Shown here piece by piece: positions 5,042 to 14,168 of a stretch of 64,000 nt of DNA; the stretch's first letter is position 1, and each line of letters starts with the position of its first letter. This DNA comes from Candidatus Latescibacterota bacterium (GTDB lineage Bacteria > Latescibacterota > UBA2968 > UBA8231). The stretch is taken from contig CBDAOB010000004.1 of NCBI GenBank assembly GCA_965197905.1, positions 160,001 to 224,000 of the forward strand. Reading direction: 5' to 3'. The position numbers and the translations under genes were made by a program. The notes beneath the pieces are model-generated. The model did no database searches. It was not told the DNA's origin and saw only the letters and a list, made by a program, of their open reading frames with translations.

Positions 5042-5860
5042 ATGTCCTCAACTCCATCTGCGGCAGCTGCCCCCAACGAAAAAAGCCGAACCGACCCGGA
5101 CCAGATCGATGCGTCCAATAGTCAGCTAGCGGCTTATATAAATGAAATCGCCTTCGAGACCATGGAGATGGGCGATCTTCTGAAGTGGGCGGATGAGGCT
5201 TTCCCGGGAAGGGCAGTGATCAGCACCAGCCTGCAGCGCACCGGCATTGTTTTGCTTCACCTGGCGTCGGAGCTCGGTTTGAGCCTTCGCGTCGCCACCG
5301 TGGATACCTGGAGGTTACATCGCGAAACCCACGAGTTCCTGGAACAGATCGAAAAACGCTACGGATGCGATGTGGAGCGCATCGTGCCTAATGCAGAGCA
5401 AGTAAATAGCATGATCGAACGTTTTGGTGAGTACCTCTTTTTCGATTCGAAAGAAAAGCAGGAGTACTGCTGTCAGGTGCGGAAGACCCGGCCTCACCAC
5501 GAGCTACTGACAACAGCCGACTGCTGGATTGCCGGCGTCCGGCGAGATCAGTCCAGCTATCGGGCAACGAATACACCCAAGGCGAGTCTGGTGCCGGAGT
5601 ACGCTACCCGCCGGCAGATCTTGAAGCTCAATCCTCTGGCTGACTGGACCGAACAGCGTTTGCTCCGGTTCGTCGAGGCGAACGGGATTCCCGAGCACCC
5701 TCTATACGCGAAAGGGTACACGAGCATTGGTTGTTTTATATGCTCGACGCCGGCGGTCGCGGGGGAAGACCAGCGTGTTGGTCGCTGGCGCTGGTTCAAT
5801 CAGAAGAATCGCGAGTTGGAAGAGGACGCGAAGGAATGCGGACTGCATTACAACATCTGA
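5042..5860 (+). CDS. cysH: adenylylsulfate/phosphoadenylylsulfate reductase, Fe-S-containing APS reductase type
   Basis: CCQVRK, GVRRDQS, KLNPLADWT, GYTSIGCFIC, C-terminal ECGLH. Confidence 0.92.
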   Translation: MSSTPSAAAAPNEKSRTDPDQIDASNSQLAAYINEIAFETMEMGDLLKWADEAFPGRAVISTSLQRTGIVLLHLASELGLSLRVATVDTWRLHRETHEFLEQIEKRYGCDVERIVPNAEQVNSMIERFGEYLFFDSKEKQEYCCQVRKTRPHHELLTTADCWIAGVRRDQSSYRATNTPKASLVPEYATRRQILKLNPLADWTEQRLLRFVEANGIPEHPLYAKGYTSIGCFICSTPAVAGEDQRVGRWRWFNQKNRELEEDAKECGLHYNI

Positions 5861-5896
5861 CGCGGAAGGACCGTCGATTCTCGTCAGATAAAGGCC

Positions 5897-7282
5897 TCAC
5901 TGAAAGCGCGCACACCTTTTGAACTGCTGTGCTCGGTCCTCGTAGTTGGCGAACAACCCGAAACTGGCGCACCCTGGAGAGAGTAATATCACGTCACCCG
6001 GGCGCGCGTGACGCTCCGCGGCGGCGACCGCCCATTCCATCGAATCGCCTCTTTCCAAAATCAGGTCCGATCTTACGGCTGAGTCCTTCATTGCGCGCAC
6101 GATCGATTCTGCCTCGTCGCCCAAAAGTAGCACCGCTTTCACGTTGCTTGCCGCCACTGCTTCGCCAAGAGCCGCGAAGTCGGAGCCCTTCCCAGAGCCG
6201 CCCGCGATCAGCTGTAGCGGCTCGGTAAAACACCGGACCGCGGCGGCAGCGGCCTCAGGTGTGGTGGCGGCAGAGTCGTCCACGTATACGATACCGTTGC
6301 GTGTGCCGATCTGCTGTAACCGGTGCGGCAAGCCGGAGAAACTCCGCAGAGAATCAGCGATCGATTCGACGGAAGCACCGAGGATGCTCGCAGTGGCAGC
6401 CGCCGCGAGGCTGTTTTTCAGGTTGTGAGCACCTCTTAAAGAGAGATCGTGCAGGCCGCACAGCTCTACGTTCTCTCCTTCGCGGTCCACGAAGAGGGAC
6501 TCACCTTCGACCCACGTCCCGGTCGGGACCTCGCGGGAGGTGCTGAACCACACCTTCTCCGCCGGGCTCGAGTCGACCAGGCGTCGTGCCGATGAGCTCT
6601 CGAGATCGGCGATCACCCGATCTTTTGGTCCTTGGAAGCGACATATCGATCCCTTGGCGTTTACGTACTCCTCCGCGTCTGCGTGGTAATCCAGATGGTC
6701 TTGAGTAATGTCGAGAACGACTGCTGTCTGGGGGCTGGAACGAAGATCGTGAAGCTGAAAGCTGGACAGCTCCAGAACTATCCGATCGCCAGGTTCGACT
6801 TGCTCGAGGAATCTGATCGGAGGCACGCCAATGTTGCCTCCCAGATGGGTGGTGCCGTCTCCTTCTTTGTGGAGGATGTCAGCGAGCAGGGCAGCGGTAG
6901 TTCCCTTGCCCTTTGTTCCAGTAATGCCAACTACCGCTGCGGGGCACAGATCGAGGAACAACTGGGTCTGGCTCGAAACGTAGACGCCTGCGTTGCGGGC
7001 CGCTTCGATTTCCGGTCTGAGGGTATTGATTCCTGGGGTGCGAAAGATCCAGTCGAAGTCTGTCAGGGCTTCGAGGTATCGGGGCCCGATGCGCCAGGTG
7101 TGAACGCATGGATTCCATTCAGCTCGATTCTGGATAACATCAAGCTTGCCGCCGTCACACACCGAAAAATCGAACCCTTGGGCGCAAAGGAATCGGCCCA
7201 ACGCGCGGTTCTCCTTTCCGAACCCCAGCAGTGCGATTCGCGAGTCTCTCAGTTGTTCGAGTGATTGGTTTCTCGGCGACAA
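5897..7282 (-). CDS. murD: UDP-N-acetylmuramoyl-L-alanine--D-glutamate ligase
   Basis: LGFGKEN, GITGTKGKGTT, GGNIG, ELSSFQL, DHLDYH, LLSPGCASF. Start placed at TTG 7282; the longer ORF overlaps the divergent gene. Confidence 0.93.
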   Translation of the reverse strand: MSPRNQSLEQLRDSRIALLGFGKENRALGRFLCAQGFDFSVCDGGKLDVIQNRAEWNPCVHTWRIGPRYLEALTDFDWIFRTPGINTLRPEIEAARNAGVYVSSQTQLFLDLCPAAVVGITGTKGKGTTAALLADILHKEGDGTTHLGGNIGVPPIRFLEQVEPGDRIVLELSSFQLHDLRSSPQTAVVLDITQDHLDYHADAEEYVNAKGSICRFQGPKDRVIADLESSSARRLVDSSPAEKVWFSTSREVPTGTWVEGESLFVDREGENVELCGLHDLSLRGAHNLKNSLAAAATASILGASVESIADSLRSFSGLPHRLQQIGTRNGIVYVDDSAATTPEAAAAAVRCFTEPLQLIAGGSGKGSDFAALGEAVAASNVKAVLLLGDEAESIVRAMKDSAVRSDLILERGDSMEWAVAAAERHARPGDVILLSPGCASFGLFANYEDRAQQFKRCARFQ

Positions 7283-9297: not shown

Positions 9298-10241
9298 CTA
9301 TTCTCCGCCGCACCGCAAGCGCTTCGGCGCGCGGCAGTAGATCTCGCACCAACGCCCGGAACCGGGGTGAGTGAATCCGACGTATCGAGCATGCAGGTGA
9401 TACCCGCAATCGCCGGGTAGCGCCGGGCGATCGCCAGGATCCCGGTCTAGTGGCACGCCGCCTGCACCGTAGAGCGGATCGCCGACAAGGGGATACCCTG
9501 CCGCCGCCAGATGAATCCGAATTTGGTGGGGCCTGCCGGTGGGGATTTCCACTTCTAGGAGGGTCTGCCGAGCGGCCAAATCGCGGCGACAGACGCAGCA
9601 CTCGCTGCGCGCAGGAACGCCGGCCGTTGTCGCCGCGTAGAGCTTGTCGACGGGTCCGTAGGCCACGCGTCCAATGGGGCTTTCCACCGAAAAGTCGTTT
9701 GGCATATCGGTTCCGGCGACCAGGGCTCGGTAACATTTGCGAATGGAACCGGTGCGAAAGTCTCGAGAGAGGTCCCTTCTGGCGCGCGGGGAAGCGGCGA
9801 ACAAAACCAGGCCTGAGGTCCCACGGCCCAGCCGGTGAAGCGGGGCTAGGTGGCCTCCGAGCTTGAGACGAACCAGATGCAGCAAGGTCCGATTCAAGAA
9901 CTGACCACCGGGAAGAACGGGAAGTCCGGACGGTTTGATGGTGGCGATCAGATCGTCATCCGCATATGCTAACGCGAACTGGGAGGGAGCTTCGGGCTCT
10001 CGCCAAGGCGGGCGATGGTAACTGAGCTTCTGCCCGGTGCAAACCACAGCCTCCCCCTGGTCGTGGGTCGATCGTCCAGTCTAACGAGACCGGTGGCGAC
10101 GCGCTCACTCCAGGTATCGCGGGAGGAGTGGGGGTAGCGTTGGGTATAGAAATCGAGGACGGCGATGCCTGCCGAATCCCCGGAAATGCGATCGACATAG
10201 GTCCATCCCTGATTCCGGTCTGCCCTACTCTCCGATTCCAT
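9298..10241 (-). pseudogene. RluA-family pseudouridine synthase, frameshifted at a G5 run near 10053-10057
   Basis: N-terminus in ORF 9969..10241 (GWTYVD...FYTQRYPHSSR); catalytic part in ORF 9298..10047 (KPSGLP, HRLGRGTSGL, TGRPHQIR, GDPLY). Adding one G to the homopolymer joins the frames. Confidence 0.85.
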
Positions 10242-10269
10242 CTCTTAAATCTACTCTCGTCTCGGGAGA

Positions 10270-10298
10270 TTGACACAAACCTGCTGAATATTTATTAT
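10270..10298 (+). promoter_or_regulatory. probable native argC sigma70 promoter, now separated from argC by the IS
   Basis: TTGACA (10270-10275), 17 bp, TATTAT (10293-10298), in an AT-rich patch just left of the insertion site. Confidence 0.55.
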
Positions 10299-10324
10299 AA
10301 TAAATAATTATCGGAACTATCTAC

Positions 10325-10353
10325 TTGACAAAGCAGCCCATAAGTAGTATATT
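10325..10353 (+). promoter_or_regulatory. transposase promoter overlapping the left inverted repeat
   Basis: TTGACA (10325-10330), 17 bp, TATATT (10348-10353). Confidence 0.65.
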
Positions 10354-10385
10354 AACAAGTAGAAAGATTGAAAAAGGGGCTGAAA

Positions 10386-11315
10386 ATGACATTCGAAGAA
10401 ATCGCACAATTCTCGGAAGATGAAGCCCGAAGGCATCTGGAAAATCTGCGTTGGCTGAACGGCATTACATGCCCTCACTGTGAATCCAAGGACGCTACAC
10501 GCATGGAGGGCGAGGCACATCGCAAGGGTGCCATACAGTGCAACGACTGCCGCCAGCAGTTCACGGTTACCGTGGGCACCGTGATGGAGTCCACAAGGGT
10601 TCCGCTGCGCAAATGGATCATGGCCTTTCATCTCTTGTGCTCCAGTAAGAAGGGGTATAGCGCCCTTCAGTTGAAACGCGATCTCGGCTTGGGATCTTAC
10701 AAGACGGCTTGGTTTATGGCTCACAGAATCCGCTATGCGATGAATAACGGCCCCCTAAGTGAGAAGCTCAAGGGAACAGTTGAGATGGACGAAACCTATG
10801 TAGGCGGCAAACCCCGCAACAGAAGTCCGAAAAACAAGCGTGGGCGCGGCACGAAAAAGAAGCCGGTAGTAGCATTGGTAGAGCGTGATGGCGAGGTCCG
10901 ATCTAGGGCCGTGGAGAACGTCAAGGGAAAGACGTTGAACGCGGAGATCCTACAGCACGTGGACAAGCGGTCTACGCTTGTCACCGACGAACTACCGCAT
11001 TACACGCACGCTGGACGATTCGTGGGCGATCATCGCGTGATCAGACATAACGGAAGAGAGTACGTGAGACGAGAAGGGTTACTGTTGGTGACGACAAACA
11101 CGGTCGAATCGTATTTCGCCCTGATTAAGCGTGGCCACTACGGCGTGTATCACTCCATGAGCAGCAAGCACATAGGGCGGTATGTGGATGAATTTGCATT
11201 CCGATGGAACCACAGGAAGGCGAATGATTCAGAGCGGCGCGATACCGCGATTCAACAAGGGGAGGGGAAACGATTGATGTACTCAGAAAACCATTGTACT
11301 CAAGAAAATGTTTAA
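10386..11315 (+). CDS. IS1595-family (ISXO2-like DDE) transposase
   Basis: Zn ribbon CPHC...CNDC, HTH (SALQLKRDLGLGSYKTAW), DDE motifs VEMDETYVGG / LVTDE / NTVESYF, YVDEFAFRWN. ATG at 10386; alternative TTG at 10368. Confidence 0.95.
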   Translation: MTFEEIAQFSEDEARRHLENLRWLNGITCPHCESKDATRMEGEAHRKGAIQCNDCRQQFTVTVGTVMESTRVPLRKWIMAFHLLCSSKKGYSALQLKRDLGLGSYKTAWFMAHRIRYAMNNGPLSEKLKGTVEMDETYVGGKPRNRSPKNKRGRGTKKKPVVALVERDGEVRSRAVENVKGKTLNAEILQHVDKRSTLVTDELPHYTHAGRFVGDHRVIRHNGREYVRREGLLLVTTNTVESYFALIKRGHYGVYHSMSSKHIGRYVDEFAFRWNHRKANDSERRDTAIQQGEGKRLMYSENHCTQENV

Positions 11316-11319
11316 CGTT

Positions 11320-11360
11320 GTTGACATTTGGTTGACATTTGCTAGCGGATTTATTACTCT
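11320..11360 (+). repeat. tandem 11-bp repeat GTTGACATTTG x2; the second copy forms a sigma70-like promoter
   Basis: Copies at 11320-11330 and 11331-11341; TTGACA (11332-11337), 17 bp, TACTCT (11355-11360). Confidence 0.6.
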
Positions 11361-11386
11361 AACAAATAACCTTTGTTGTACAAAGT

Positions 11387-11467
11387 TGGTAGCCCCACCG
11401 GGACTCGAACCCGGAACCTGCGCCGTTCGATGGGTCCAGCTGCTCTATCCAGTTGAGCTACAGGGCC
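11387..11467 (-). tRNA. tRNA-like gene (tRNA-Arg-derived) with aberrant anticodon arm, 81 nt, encoded CCA
   Basis: GGCCCTG-TA-GCTC AACTGGATA GAGC-A-GCTGGACCCATCGAACGGCGC-AGGTT-CCGGG TTCGAGT CCCGG-TGGGGCT-A-CCA. Acceptor (three G:U pairs), D and T arms fold; the anticodon region is 21 nt instead of 17 and contains TCG-AA. Confidence 0.8.
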
Positions 11468-11491
11468 ACCAATTTTTCTGACAAAGGACTA

Positions 11492-11563
11492 TGGTGGAGG
11501 CAGGGGGAATTGAACCCCCCGGTACAGGTGTCTAAGTCCACTACCGGCTACCTAGCTGCCCCC
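11492..11563 (-). ncRNA. 72-nt tRNA-like RNA with Ala acceptor stem and no D-stem, resembling the tmRNA tRNA-like domain; encoded CCA
   Basis: GGGGGCA...TGCCTCC-A-CCA pairs fully with G3:U70 and A73. T arm GGGGG TTCAATT CCCCC; central hairpin CGGTA-GTG...CAC-ctg-TACCG. Confidence 0.7.
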
Positions 11564-12060
11564 ACGCTGGATGTGAAAATCCCGTTACCAGATTCCCCGG
11601 TAACGGGATTTTCCTCTTTGTGCAAAGATTCTCGCCATTTCATAGTCAGTCGGTATGCTGACTTACCGTTGCGCTTACCGGCTCGCTCAATGATTTTGCG
11701 CTTCCCAAATGATTTTAAGACCGTGTGAGCTGATCCAAGGAGATTGTCAGATTCGCTATGCAACTTCCCTTGCTCCTTGAGCTTCTGCAATTCGTCTCTT
11801 AATTCTGAGGGGTTCCAAGCCCGAGTGTGGTTATTGCGAAAAATGCTGGTAATCGCTTCGACGGGACCGACCGCTTCCACTCTTAGCGCCACCTCACTGT
11901 TGCCGTTACCCGAAATCGGGAACTGCGGTCCCTTGAGTAAGGTTTTAACGGCAGCCAGTTGCTCTTGTACGGCATTAAGCTCACGTTGGATCTCGTTGAC
12001 CTTATTGAGCAAGAATTTGCGTCGATCAGCTAAGGCGATTTCAAATTGCCTGTCGTCCAT
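11548..12060 (-). CDS. IS passenger protein: N-terminal coiled coil plus putative winged-helix domain
   Basis: ATG at 12060 with RBS AAGGAG. Heptad-like LLNKVNEIQRELNAVQEQLAAV; C-terminal helix pattern followed by KIIERAGKRNGKSAYRL (wing-like). Confidence 0.7.
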   Translation of the reverse strand: MDDRQFEIALADRRKFLLNKVNEIQRELNAVQEQLAAVKTLLKGPQFPISGNGNSEVALRVEAVGPVEAITSIFRNNHTRAWNPSELRDELQKLKEQGKLHSESDNLLGSAHTVLKSFGKRKIIERAGKRNGKSAYRLTMKWRESLHKEENPVTGESGNGIFTSSVGAAR

Positions 12061-12138
12061 TGTTGATCTCCTTGGTTGGAGAATTACTGGCCCCAAGCTT
12101 AAAATAGCTTACGCACCAAGTTAGCACAAGTTGAAATT

Positions 12139-12339
12139 ATGGGTAAGAATAAAAGCACCAAATGCACCAAGAATGATAATCAAGAATTAGAACAAGCGCA
12201 AGGTGGGTTATCCTTGCACCCCTTGAACCCTGACGAAGCCCTCGCGGCGTTTCTGGACACGCCACCACCAGAGGATGAGCAGGGTAATAAAAACCGAAAA
12301 CGAGGTGCTGATAAAAAGAAGGATACGAGGGAAGAGTAG
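12139..12339 (+). CDS. small IS passenger ORF, 66 aa
   Basis: ATG-initiated ORF divergent from the passenger gene and ending just inside the right IR; core LSLHPLNPDEALAAFLDTPPP between charged tails. Confidence 0.55.
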   Translation: MGKNKSTKCTKNDNQELEQAQGGLSLHPLNPDEALAAFLDTPPPEDEQGNKNRKRGADKKKDTREE

Positions 12340-12426
12340 GTCTAAGTGCTAATAAATACGTGGCTTTGCGATAGCTTTCTTAAGTAGATAGTTCCGATAA
12401 TTATTACTCTCATTGGCACGGAATTC

Positions 12427-13398
12427 ATGGCCCAACCCAAGGTATTCATAGACGGTCAAGAGGGAACAACCGGTCTGCGCATTCGCGAGATGCTGAATGA
12501 TCGCCCGGATCTGGAACTGCTCACGATCCCGCCGCAAGATCGCAAGGATTCCACCGCCAGAGAGGACTATCTGAACGCCGCGGACCTAGCCATCCTCTGC
12601 TTGCCGGATGCGGCGGCGGCCGAGGCGGTCAACCTGGTGCAGAACCCGCAAACGAGACTCCTGGATACCAGCACGGTCCGGAGGGTTGATCCGAACTGGA
12701 TCTATGGCCTGCCTGAACTGGGTGTCTCGCAGCGGCAGTCGATCGCCGGGTCGATGCGGGTAGCCAATCCCGGTTGTTATCCCACCGGGTTCATACTGGC
12801 CGTGCGCCCACTGATCGAAGCCGGGGTGTTGAACCCAGCGGCGCGGCTCACCGTAAACGCGGTATCCGGGTACTCGGGTGGCGGAAAAGCACTCATCGAG
12901 GAATATAAATCGCTACCATCACCCGAGCGGGCGAACGACACAGCGCGGCCACTGGCGATCTACGGCCTCGATAGCCGGCACAAACATCTCTCTGAAATGC
13001 AGCTATTCAGCTGTCTGGAACACCCCCCGTTGTTCGTGCCCGCAGTCCTACCCGCCTATTGTGGCATGATGGTCAGCACGCCGGTTCCGATATCGGCCTT
13101 TACCAATGCTACCACCCCGAAGGAAATTTTCGACATCTGGAACGACCACTACGCCGATTCCCCCATGGTCGAGCTCCGCAACCCGCGAGACCCCACCGCG
13201 TTGCGCGACGGTCGATTTCTGGATCTGGAAGGGATCTCCGATCGAAACTCGATTCAACTGATGGTGTTCGGGGACGACGAGATCGGCCTGGTGCTTTTTG
13301 CCAGGCTCGACAATCTCGGCAAGGGAGCGGCTGGAAACGCCGTTCAATGTCTGAACCTCATGTTGGGATTTGCGGAAACCGCCGGACTCTCCGATTGA
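12427..13398 (+). CDS. argC: N-acetyl-gamma-glutamyl-phosphate reductase (type 2)
   Basis: KVFIDGQEGTTGL, VANPGCYPTG, AVSGYSGGGK, DNLGKGAAGNAVQ. Confidence 0.95.
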   Translation: MAQPKVFIDGQEGTTGLRIREMLNDRPDLELLTIPPQDRKDSTAREDYLNAADLAILCLPDAAAAEAVNLVQNPQTRLLDTSTVRRVDPNWIYGLPELGVSQRQSIAGSMRVANPGCYPTGFILAVRPLIEAGVLNPAARLTVNAVSGYSGGGKALIEEYKSLPSPERANDTARPLAIYGLDSRHKHLSEMQLFSCLEHPPLFVPAVLPAYCGMMVSTPVPISAFTNATTPKEIFDIWNDHYADSPMVELRNPRDPTALRDGRFLDLEGISDRNSIQLMVFGDDEIGLVLFARLDNLGKGAAGNAVQCLNLMLGFAETAGLSD

Positions 13399-14168
13399 AC
13401 CCTGAGCTGGTCGATAGTCACTGCCATTTGGATCAGCTGCCAGATCCTCCAGCCGTTGTCCGGGAAGCGCAAGCCCGAGCTGTTTCGCGCATCGTAGCCG
13501 TGAGCGAAAGCGCCGATTCAATGCGGGCGGTTCTCGGATTGAAGCAAAACCTCGGGGCAACCATCCTGGCCGCGCTCGGAATGCACCCGGCGTGGATTAC
13601 CCAACACAGTGAGGCCGAGATCGAAGCCGGTTTCGAATACCTGTCCGCTCATCTAGCAGAAGCGGACGCTCTCGGTGAGGTTGGCCTCGATTACAAATGG
13701 GCTACGACCGAGGCGGAGAAACGAGAGCAGGCACAGATTCTCGACAGACAGCTTCAAATGGCGGCCGACCACCGAAAAGCCATCAATATGCATTCACGTC
13801 GCTGCCAGAGGCAGGTTATGGAACGGGCGATTTCCTTTCGCCGGGAAACCGGATTGAACGTCCAGCTTCACTGGTTTACGCAATCGAAGAAATTGGCGCG
13901 GATCTGCAACGAAGAGGGTATCTACATATCCGCCGGCCCTGCGATCGTCGGTGATACACTGGGGTTGGCCGTCGTTTCCGAGGTGGCCGATGAGCTACTG
14001 CTTCTGGAGACGGACGCCCCCGTTGGTATCAACGGAATCCCAGGGCATCCGGGGCGGATCCGCGAGGTGGCTGAAGCGGTCGCCGCGTTTTCGGCAACAA
14101 CCTGGGAGCGGGTGGCCAACCGGACCACCCGTAATTTTCAACGATTCGTGGGACTTGAACCGGGATGA
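13395..14168 (+). CDS. TatD-family hydrolase
   Basis: DSHCHL, GMHP, GEVGLDY, LLLETDAP. TTG start overlaps the argC stop. Confidence 0.88.
   Translation: MNPELVDSHCHLDQLPDPPAVVREAQARAVSRIVAVSESADSMRAVLGLKQNLGATILAALGMHPAWITQHSEAEIEAGFEYLSAHLAEADALGEVGLDYKWATTEAEKREQAQILDRQLQMAADHRKAINMHSRRCQRQVMERAISFRRETGLNVQLHWFTQSKKLARICNEEGIYISAGPAIVGDTLGLAVVSEVADELLLLETDAPVGINGIPGHPGRIREVAEAVAAFSATTWERVANRTTRNFQRFVGLEPG

Follow-up and report, generated by a model that had tools for sequence, protein, structure and literature searches.

An IS1595-family transporter transposon carrying two unusual tRNA genes beside a gene for a predicted winged-helix protein

The element and its minus-strand unit

We describe a transposon in a 64,000-nucleotide stretch of DNA from a Candidatus Latescibacterota bacterium (contig CBDAOB010000004.1, positions 160,001 to 224,000; this whole stretch is called the window here), which carries two tRNA genes of unusual build beside a gene for a putative DNA-binding protein. 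The element (10312-12396) is a complete, 2,085-bp transporter insertion sequence (tIS) of the IS1595 family, and all the marks of such an element are present: a transposase with a DDE domain and a zinc ribbon, inverted repeats with an 8-bp target duplication, and passenger genes inside the ends (an open reading frame (ORF) for a winged-helix protein, two tRNA genes and a 66-aa ORF). The transposase gene (tnp; 10386-11315, plus strand; the ORF start may be TTG 10368) encodes a protein that matches Pfam DDE_Tnp_IS1595 (PF12762, E 1e-40) and Zn_ribbon_IS1595 (PF12760, E 3e-11), and the related transposases found are 44-56% identical to it. On the minus strand the order is ORF 12060-11548, a hairpin (11613-11575), a 72-nt RNA (11563-11492), a 24-nt spacer and an 81-nt tRNA (11467-11387), and this unit converges on tnp. 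A previous interpretation made from the letters of the window (the sequence-only reading) had given these coordinates for the ORF, the spacer and both RNAs, with an encoded CCA at the end of each RNA, and every one of them is exact.

The true ends of the element, 10312 and 12396, are those of the left (10312-10334; similar ends, …TATATACTTGACAAA…, occur in related elements) and right (12374-12396, from a repeat search) terminal inverted repeats, and they abut the left (10304-10311) and right (12397-12404) copies of the target duplication ATAATTAT, which match each other. The inverted-repeat arms span 10303-10334 and 12374-12405 (32 nt, 94% complementary), a repeat that looks 9 nt too long because the palindromic 8-bp duplication flanks both ends. 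A strong promoter-like site (TTGACA-N17-TATATT, 10325-10353) begins within the left inverted repeat. In a genome of the same genus (G098) we found the empty site, with a single copy of the duplication: the flanks 9300-10311 and 12397-13400 match adjoining stretches that have 8 nt in common, and this is therefore a true insertion. Together, Pfam, the inverted repeats and the empty site bear out the proposal of an IS1595 element with cargo, bounded by inverted repeats and an 8-bp duplication.

The cargo protein encoded by ORF 12060-11548 (170 aa; ORF list, homologs and structure model) is predicted to carry a winged-helix DNA-binding domain behind an N-terminal helix. Its AlphaFold model (mean pLDDT 84.3) has a 40-residue helix followed by a winged helix, and this domain matches the DNA-binding domains of Fur, MarR, PadR and MecI in structure comparison (e.g. 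2fu4_A, rmsd 2.8 over 74 columns), so that the DNA-binding protein suspected earlier is supported, as a DNA-binding fold, at the level of predicted structure. Three homologs (P0002-P0004) are ~65% identical to it, the family comprises 70 representatives, and a search of the phylum gave a 29% match at best. Distant homologs are mostly 110-160 aa long, with the match ending at about query residue 117-147 in most rows; they are shorter than the 170-aa protein, which makes the last ~25 codons of the cargo ORF look like an extension read through the hairpin into the start of the first tRNA. The 23 residues encoded there are identical or differ by one change in P0002-P0004, despite the 65% overall identity, and these protein homologs thus suggest that the nucleotides of the hairpin are under constraint. 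Past the hairpin-encoded tail, the sequence of P0002-P0004 suggests that a variant alanine-type RNA follows.

The hairpin itself (11575-11613, minus strand; inverted repeat and folding) is perfect over 17 bp, lies between the folded domains of the protein and the first tRNA, and is exceptionally stable for its composition (-29 kcal/mol, z -5.7, 0/200 shuffles as stable); a comparable hairpin precedes the tRNA in related elements. A promoter search found no sigma-70-like promoter for the minus-strand unit. The proteins encoded upstream of the tRNAs in other elements look alike by eye (a coiled coil and a winged-helix-like tail); neither phmmer nor a hidden Markov model (HMM) of the window family matched them, and we do not claim homology.

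Two families of unusual tRNAs in related transposons

The 72-nt RNA (11492-11563, minus strand) reads as a compact tRNA of alanine identity, judging from its sequence, Rfam and an Infernal family alignment. It has G1:C72, G2:C71, G3:U70, A73 and CCA, a mini D-arm (GCU-AGGU-AGC), a long anticodon helix and no variable loop, and its loop CUUAGAC yields the anticodon UAG if read in the family frame. The marks of an alanine acceptor that had been noted on it (G3:U70, discriminator A, CCA) are present; alanyl-tRNA synthetase (AlaRS) recognises G3:U70. ARAGORN made no call on this RNA and no tmRNA call within the window. Rfam returned no tRNA row (RF00005) for it, and its best match was tmRNA, by the tRNA-like ends only (34.1 bits vs. 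a gathering score of 47), with the central 306 positions of the tmRNA model reduced to 15 nt. The RNA does resemble the tRNA-like domain of tmRNA in its G3:U70 acceptor ending in ACCA, its T arm, its reduced D region and the long helix in place of the anticodon arm; it differs in having a 7-nt anticodon-type loop and in lacking an mRNA-like part, a tag reading frame and pseudoknots. As the score also falls below the gathering score and the real tmRNA of the genome lies at C4:1301039, we rejected its assignment as a tmRNA.

Relatives of this RNA occur in five other transposon loci (L035, L106, L110, L112 and L138), and RNA-first searches added more. Among 151 genomes of the phylum to which the window belongs, five besides G000 matched (three alanine-type RNAs, one true tmRNA and one tRNA-Pro); in Acidobacteriota (151 genomes), eight places scored at least 46 bits, and six were examined as further members (the two omitted are the L035 locus itself and a place in an unpublished genome). 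Note that the model used (R3) gives ordinary tRNAs 35-42 bits, and only matches of at least 46 bits were examined. An IS1595 transposase lay within the flanking sequence in 4/9 of these RNA-first finds, and none was present in the flanks examined for the other 5/9. One alanine-type RNA (L173, genome G103), with no IS1595 transposase nearby, is directly followed by a 282-aa ORF with a helix-turn-helix-like N-terminus (5100-5948), which may be another kind of mobile-element gene.

The nine members that we aligned with Infernal, used here since MAFFT misaligned the G-rich 5' ends, share one fold, in which 97.1% of 174 cells are paired, 15/20 pairs have changed on both sides (0/500 shuffles as high) and all four helices covary. 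This compact type spans 66-75 nt. Its acceptor stem has 7 bp and its T arm 5 bp, the mini D-arm consists of 2-5 bp and a ..GGU loop (4-5 nt), the anticodon helix is long (about 8-10 layers) and bulged on its 3' side, and there is no variable loop; the unconstrained fold of the window RNA gives an acceptor/T branch of 8/4, and the family alignment is fully paired as 7/5. G1:C72, G2:C71 and G3:U70 are present in 9/9 aligned members and A73 is invariant, with pairs 4-7 variable; G3:U70 is also found in 5/6 further members, read by eye, one having U3.U70. The loop is [C/U]U-NNN-RA, gapless, in 6/8 Infernal-aligned rows, the exceptions being the window (ending AC) and L112 (CA), and a purine stands at position 37 in 7/8. 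The triplet in this frame varies widely (UAG in the window, UCC, GUG, UCC, CUA, UGA, CUG and CUG in the eight aligned rows; CUA, CCA, UUA, UUG, CCU and UGC, by eye, in the six further members): stop-codon anticodons account for 3/14 triplets and the alanine anticodon UGC for 1/14, and the loop in the window is not that of alanine.

The 81-nt RNA (11387-11467, minus strand) is a class I tRNA with an encoded CCA and an arginine-tRNA-like body that resembles the host tRNA-Arg(UCU) (L003). ARAGORN calls it as a tRNA, and it scores 40.9 bits with Rfam RF00005 (gathering score 29). In the assembly its anticodon arm is 4 nt too long, with a 17-nt insert where the Rfam model has 13. Four bases, 11435-11438 (TCCA on the plus strand), are absent from the contigs of all three RNA runs considered below, which are otherwise identical over 160-215 nt, and in X5 these bases show as a loose end. 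Without them the 17-nt anticodon arm of a canonical tRNA (5-bp stem, 7-nt loop) is restored, and ARAGORN recognises a tRNA of 77 nt whose anticodon, CGA, is at the standard position; by our own reading, the anticodon stem (GCCCC/GGCGC) has one C.C mismatch. The odd anticodon region of the 81-nt RNA is thus due to four bases in which assembly and expressed form differ. Non-standard anticodon regions had been claimed for both RNAs; for this one, the claim holds for the assembled DNA and fails for the form in the RNA runs, which is a 77-nt cloverleaf with CGA. The four-base difference may be a strain difference, an assembly error or, very improbably, a removal at the RNA level.

Part of the element was matched in seven public runs, of which four were compared in detail. 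Among these, three metatranscriptome runs, which belong to a different study from the likely source, yielded a single contig each (212, 170 and 200 nt; depth 6-32). The contigs are confined to 11381/11384 to 11584/11599, or ~10% of the 2,085 bp, and the remaining 1.9 kb has zero cover, which is not evidence of silence for the rest of the element. Their lower limit lies 3-6 nt beyond the CCA, before a weak hairpin-plus-U tract at 11385-11361 seen by eye; their upper limit lies inside the perfect hairpin, where the assembler may have broken the contig, and is given no weight. Single contigs span both RNAs, which does not by itself prove one transcript. An abundant stable RNA is the best explanation for the selective cover in three runs, and both tRNAs appear to be made together as one abundant ~200-nt RNA, with its end a few bases beyond the second CCA. 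Transcripts of the cassette, which the sequence-only reading had named as a thing to look for, therefore appear to exist.

That reading had also asked whether related elements carry such genes. Transposase scans supplied 160 loci (the best 80 of 540 relatives from 591 genome stretches and the best 80 of 532 from 602 metagenome stretches), in which tRNA-like genes were sought with ARAGORN, two covariance models and our own acceptor/T-arm detector; the latter is noisy (166 matches vs. 75 in shuffles; 112 vs. 66) and only nominated candidates for Infernal scoring. tRNA-like genes are present in 28/160 transposase rows, the window included. Where the element ends could be traced, the tRNAs sit inside the inverted repeats, and most lie on the strand opposite tnp, 50-100 nt beyond its stop (those of L110 and L138 are on the tnp strand). 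In a FastTree phylogeny of the 160 transposases, tRNA carriers make up 26/70 rows in one clade (support 97) vs. 2/90 elsewhere (21/58 vs. 2/72 when restricted to loci with at least 1,000 nt after tnp), a distribution that requires 10 or more gains or losses. Neither the genome nor the metagenome scan revealed a closer copy of the window element, and transposase identity did not exceed 56%. L112 and L035 share the layout of the window, with an alanine type and then a second tRNA 8-10 nt on.

A second family is of class II. A leucine-type tRNA scoring at least 68 bits (model R1) was found in 19 loci, with a long variable arm, a 3-bp D-stem and A73. In 18 of these tRNAs, 99.3% of 413 cells are paired and 20/23 pairs are compensatory (0/500 shuffles reach this value; slid controls 36-51%), and the anticodon stem is 100% paired, with double-sided changes in 5/5 pairs. 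G35-G36 is present in 17/18, which gives the proline anticodons CGG, UGG and AGG; L008 has CCU. Either leucyl-tRNA synthetase (LeuRS) or prolyl-tRNA synthetase (ProRS) may charge them; G1:C72, A73 and G35-G36 would fit the identity of an archaeal-type ProRS. The sequence-only reading had held that selection acts on the top half of the RNAs only. This is not supported: the class II anticodon stem is fully paired and covarying, and the alanine loop keeps C32-U33 ... R37-A38 around a variable triplet. Single-sequence fold energies of the two window RNAs are unremarkable (z-scores of only -0.27 and -1.08), and it is because relatives conserve and covary that we regard the cassette as more than chance.

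Several loci hold unusual arrangements of such genes. L190 has an ochre-anticodon tRNA, a class II UGG tRNA and an alanine type with the cognate UGC within 245 nt (1322-1566), and L008 has three odd tRNAs of 102, 88 and 74 nt in a row (5112-5693). In L112 (2070-2144) and L004 (2031-2132), the cargo tRNA has the T loop UUUGAAU and a D loop without GG, which by eye suggests that both partners of the G19:C56 elbow contact have changed, to give A:U. The transposon at L075 (5556-5657) has an ordinary tRNA-Pro(GGG) gene as its neighbour, at a distance of 3 nt from the 3' end of that gene, and its 8-bp duplication, AATCGGGG, was taken from this same 3' end.

Cargo position, neighbouring features and host background

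The cargo position of sister elements (48 proteins scanned) holds methylase-Mrr fusions, PIN proteins next to 250-aa partners, HicB, NYN, DUF3800 and DUF5343; in L010 (4370-5647) and L093 (1146-2609), one ORF at this position fuses an N6/N4 DNA methylase and an Mrr-type restriction nuclease domain. That the position is common with restriction-modification and toxin-antitoxin modules points to a role in conflict or addiction. At 12139-12339 (plus strand) lies the gene for a 66-aa basic protein, PLxxxEAL…PPP followed by a lysine-rich tail, which is a recurrent part of this transposon group: relatives of 40-70 aa occur in 78/160 loci, with or without tRNAs, and usually mark the right end of the variable position after tnp. 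The protein matched no Pfam family. In the interval that separates the tnp stop from the tRNA 3' end, the 11-mer GTTGACATTTG is repeated exactly in tandem (11320-11341, two copies); both copies contain TTGACA, and the tandem could be an operator, or a promoter reading antisense into the tRNAs.

The element is single-copy in its 6.69-Mb genome, which has more distant IS1595-type genes as well (30-43% identity), and is inserted between a pseudouridine-synthase-like ORF and an argC-like ORF, both named by eye and not by search. The host tRNA set is complete and includes tRNA-Leu(UAG), tRNA-Ser(CGA) and three tRNA-Ala, and the host has its own tmRNA; the cargo therefore fills no gap. Odd ARAGORN calls elsewhere in the genome (C2:139089 and C5:481235) were dismissed as false positives, as they have no T loop and no transposase nearby.

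Possible functions of the cargo tRNAs

The element resembles known tIS in its IS1595-type transposase with a zinc ribbon, its short inverted repeats, its 8-bp duplication and its passenger genes within one pair of ends. In the parts of the IS1595, ISXO2 and passenger-gene literature that were covered, which leave out what is reportedly the founding IS1595 paper (Siguier et al. 2009), we found no published description of a tIS that carries tRNA genes. Suppressor tRNAs, some of which read stop codons, are carried by phages and other mobile elements; the likeness is that a mobile element supplies its own tRNAs, including stop-codon readers, and the difference is that the vehicle here is a 2-kb transposon with three small genes and non-canonical tRNA bodies. 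As defined in the available text of the TnCentral preprint, tIS are confined to the IS1595 and IS66 families (10.1101/2021.05.26.445724).

A close precedent, as far as the available parts of that paper go, is the irregular tRNA polycistrons and allo-tRNAs of Acidobacteria (Mukai et al. 2017, PMC5389517), which were linked to toxin-antitoxin loci and a transposon-related ORF. Several co-transcribed odd tRNAs, synthetase identity that is blind to the anticodon, and missense or stop anticodons are common to both sets, and in E. coli allo-tRNAs insert serine or alanine by identity elements and not by the anticodon (PMC5389517). By eye, 16 rows of the supplement labelled 'tRNA2, tRNALeu (7/5)', with UUA, resemble the class II tRNAs described here, e.g. 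that of L008 (PMC5389517). Those data, however, are metatranscriptome contigs, and IS1595 is nowhere mentioned in the text available; the hallmark there is an 8/4 or 9/3 acceptor/T branch (PMC5389517), whereas the alignments of both our families fit 7/5, with the window's 72-nt RNA giving 8/4 when folded unconstrained. The 72-nt type lacks the long variable arm and tRNASec-like D-arm of allo-tRNAs, having no variable region and a D-stem of 2-5 bp with a 4-5-nt loop. Within the tables available, the compact G3:U70 type does not appear (two 3'-end motifs, 0 occurrences), and proline NGG anticodons on leucine-type bodies occur in 0/16 'tRNALeu' rows, all UUA, and nowhere in supplement part 24 (PMC5389517). 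The earlier statement that no IS-borne cassette of this kind is described therefore survives in part: the IS1595 vehicle is not found in the available text of that study, which had already linked irregular polycistrons to a transposon-related gene (PMC5389517). Relative to the literature examined, in so far as it was available, what is new is the IS1595 vehicle, the proline-anticodon series and the compact alanine family.

We favour the reading that the RNAs are co-transcribed tRNAs with an identity that is mismatched to the anticodon, able to recode codons, and we put its probability at roughly 45%. All of the computed evidence fits RNAs that fold as tRNAs, are expressed, and retain synthetase identity marks lying outside the anticodon, with the anticodon itself variable. 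The alanine identity set suggests that AlaRS, which ignores the anticodon, would charge the 72-nt tRNA, and with the anticodon UAG in the family frame this tRNA would bring alanine to the leucine codons CUA/CUG; the second tRNA, in its expressed 77-nt form, would join an arginine-type body to the serine anticodon CGA. Portable tRNAs of this kind, charged independently of the anticodon, would act through the anticodon as low-level missense or nonsense suppressors, and the winged-helix protein would be the likely regulator of the unit. An anticodon-swapped alanine tRNA, unlike a mimic selected for its top half only, is expected to combine an invariant alanine identity set with a U-turn frame that stays fixed while the triplet varies freely, and this is the pattern seen. 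More tentatively, and as a possibility that we hold to be doubtful, a widespread lineage of IS1595 transposons may spread 'portable recoding tRNAs', of a compact alanine-charged and a leucine type, with an anticodon that could be freely exchanged since the synthetases would ignore it, and codon-specific mistranslation or stop read-through may serve as a weapon or addiction device.

Several observations weigh against recoding. The ribosome of bacteria may not readily accept a tRNA with a reduced D-arm and a missing variable loop; some irregular tRNAs are charged yet unused in E. coli translation, and six converted allo-tRNA(UAU) species gave no suppression and two were lethal to cells, according to the available text (PMC5389517). 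In the window, an A.A mismatch closes the alanine-type loop, which becomes an 8-nt loop in the unconstrained fold, and the DNA copy of the second tRNA has four extra bases that break its anticodon stem; if the assembly is correct, this copy may be impaired. Contamination of RNA libraries by DNA is possible, and the ends of an RNA cannot be proved from contigs. The nearest transposase relatives (L097, L084, L045, L068 and L088) have no tRNA-like gene in or near the element in a permissive Rfam scan (the only Rfam match of L097 is an ordinary tRNA ~2.7 kb upstream of its tnp), so that the cargo is dispensable for transposition and the tRNAs are frequent but optional. Furthermore, no column of the transposase alignment has proline in the 17 NGG-tRNA carriers where the 132 tRNA-free elements have leucine; a transposase that needs recoding is unsupported by this same comparison. 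Reading TAG as sense in L110, L106 and L138 lengthens many ORFs as it would by chance, and the +30 codons that it adds to the L110 transposase are uninformative. We found no recoded genes in the element.

These points raise the question of whether the RNAs decode at all. They could instead be tRNA mimics, folded and perhaps charged, that serve as regulators, as the RNA half of a defence or toxin-antitoxin-like module alongside the winged-helix protein, or as decoys for tRNA-targeting enzymes, and we consider this unlikely, though a serious alternative. The irregular tRNAs that were charged but went unused in E. coli translation, and those that were lethal there, in the text available (PMC5389517), would suit it, as would the non-standard build with its mini D-arm and missing variable loop, the cargo position shared with PIN, HicB, NYN and restriction-modification modules, and the protein gene and hairpin that always lie directly upstream of the tRNA. 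A fixed binding surface, however, accounts less well than use of the anticodon for a triplet that varies in a kept U33/R37 frame, for stop anticodons and for strict AlaRS identity pairs; outside the triplet region, the cargo anticodon stem-loops are no copies of host tRNA-Leu(UAG) or tRNA-Ser(CGA), a point against decoys of these two tRNAs, and the upstream proteins are not one detectable family. A type III toxin-antitoxin system was considered and rejected, since tandem RNA repeats are absent and the protein has a winged-helix fold and not that of a nuclease. More generally, the decoy, RNase P-signal and integration-target ideas of the sequence-only reading are weaker than a tRNA that uses its anticodon, because the anticodon stems and the loop frame are kept and the oddity of the 81-nt RNA comes down to four bases.

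Cis-acting devices for processing, stability or termination, in which cleavage by RNase P/Z sets the 3' end of the cargo mRNA or stops an antisense run into tnp, strike us as improbable. In many elements the tRNA does sit at a fixed place, 50-100 nt beyond the tnp stop and on the opposite strand, with the hairpin immediately 5' of it, and the RNA-run contigs end 3-6 nt after the CCA; such a device, however, needs the acceptor/T half only and leaves G3:U70, the anticodon stems, G35-G36 in 17/18 and the loop frame unexplained, and it does not fit L110 and L138, where the tRNAs are on the tnp strand, nor the 5/9 RNA-first finds with no transposase in the flanks examined. That the RNAs are decaying, functionless remnants of host tRNA or tmRNA genes acquired by the transposon could be read from the broken anticodon stem of the second tRNA in the DNA assembly, the single copy of the element and the close transposase relatives without tRNAs. 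We hold this to be extremely improbable, as covariation strongly disfavours it: compensatory changes occur in every helix of both families, the tRNA region is selectively present in RNA libraries, the hairpin and tRNA start are kept where the protein is only 65% identical, and a real tmRNA lies elsewhere in the genome.

If the cargo tRNAs of this lineage are charged and used as the recoding interpretation has it, then a common class of transposon would move ready-made missense and nonsense suppressor tRNAs between phyla, and similar mismatched tRNAs lie in related transposons of many bacterial groups. The compact alanine type, with its fixed identity set and free triplet, would suit as a scaffold for engineered suppressor tRNAs. 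Irregular tRNAs that were known only from soil metatranscriptomes gain a genomic home and a vehicle, in the form of a defined 2-kb element, and codon-level mistranslation, possibly even a change of the genetic code, would have a natural route if the interpretation is true.

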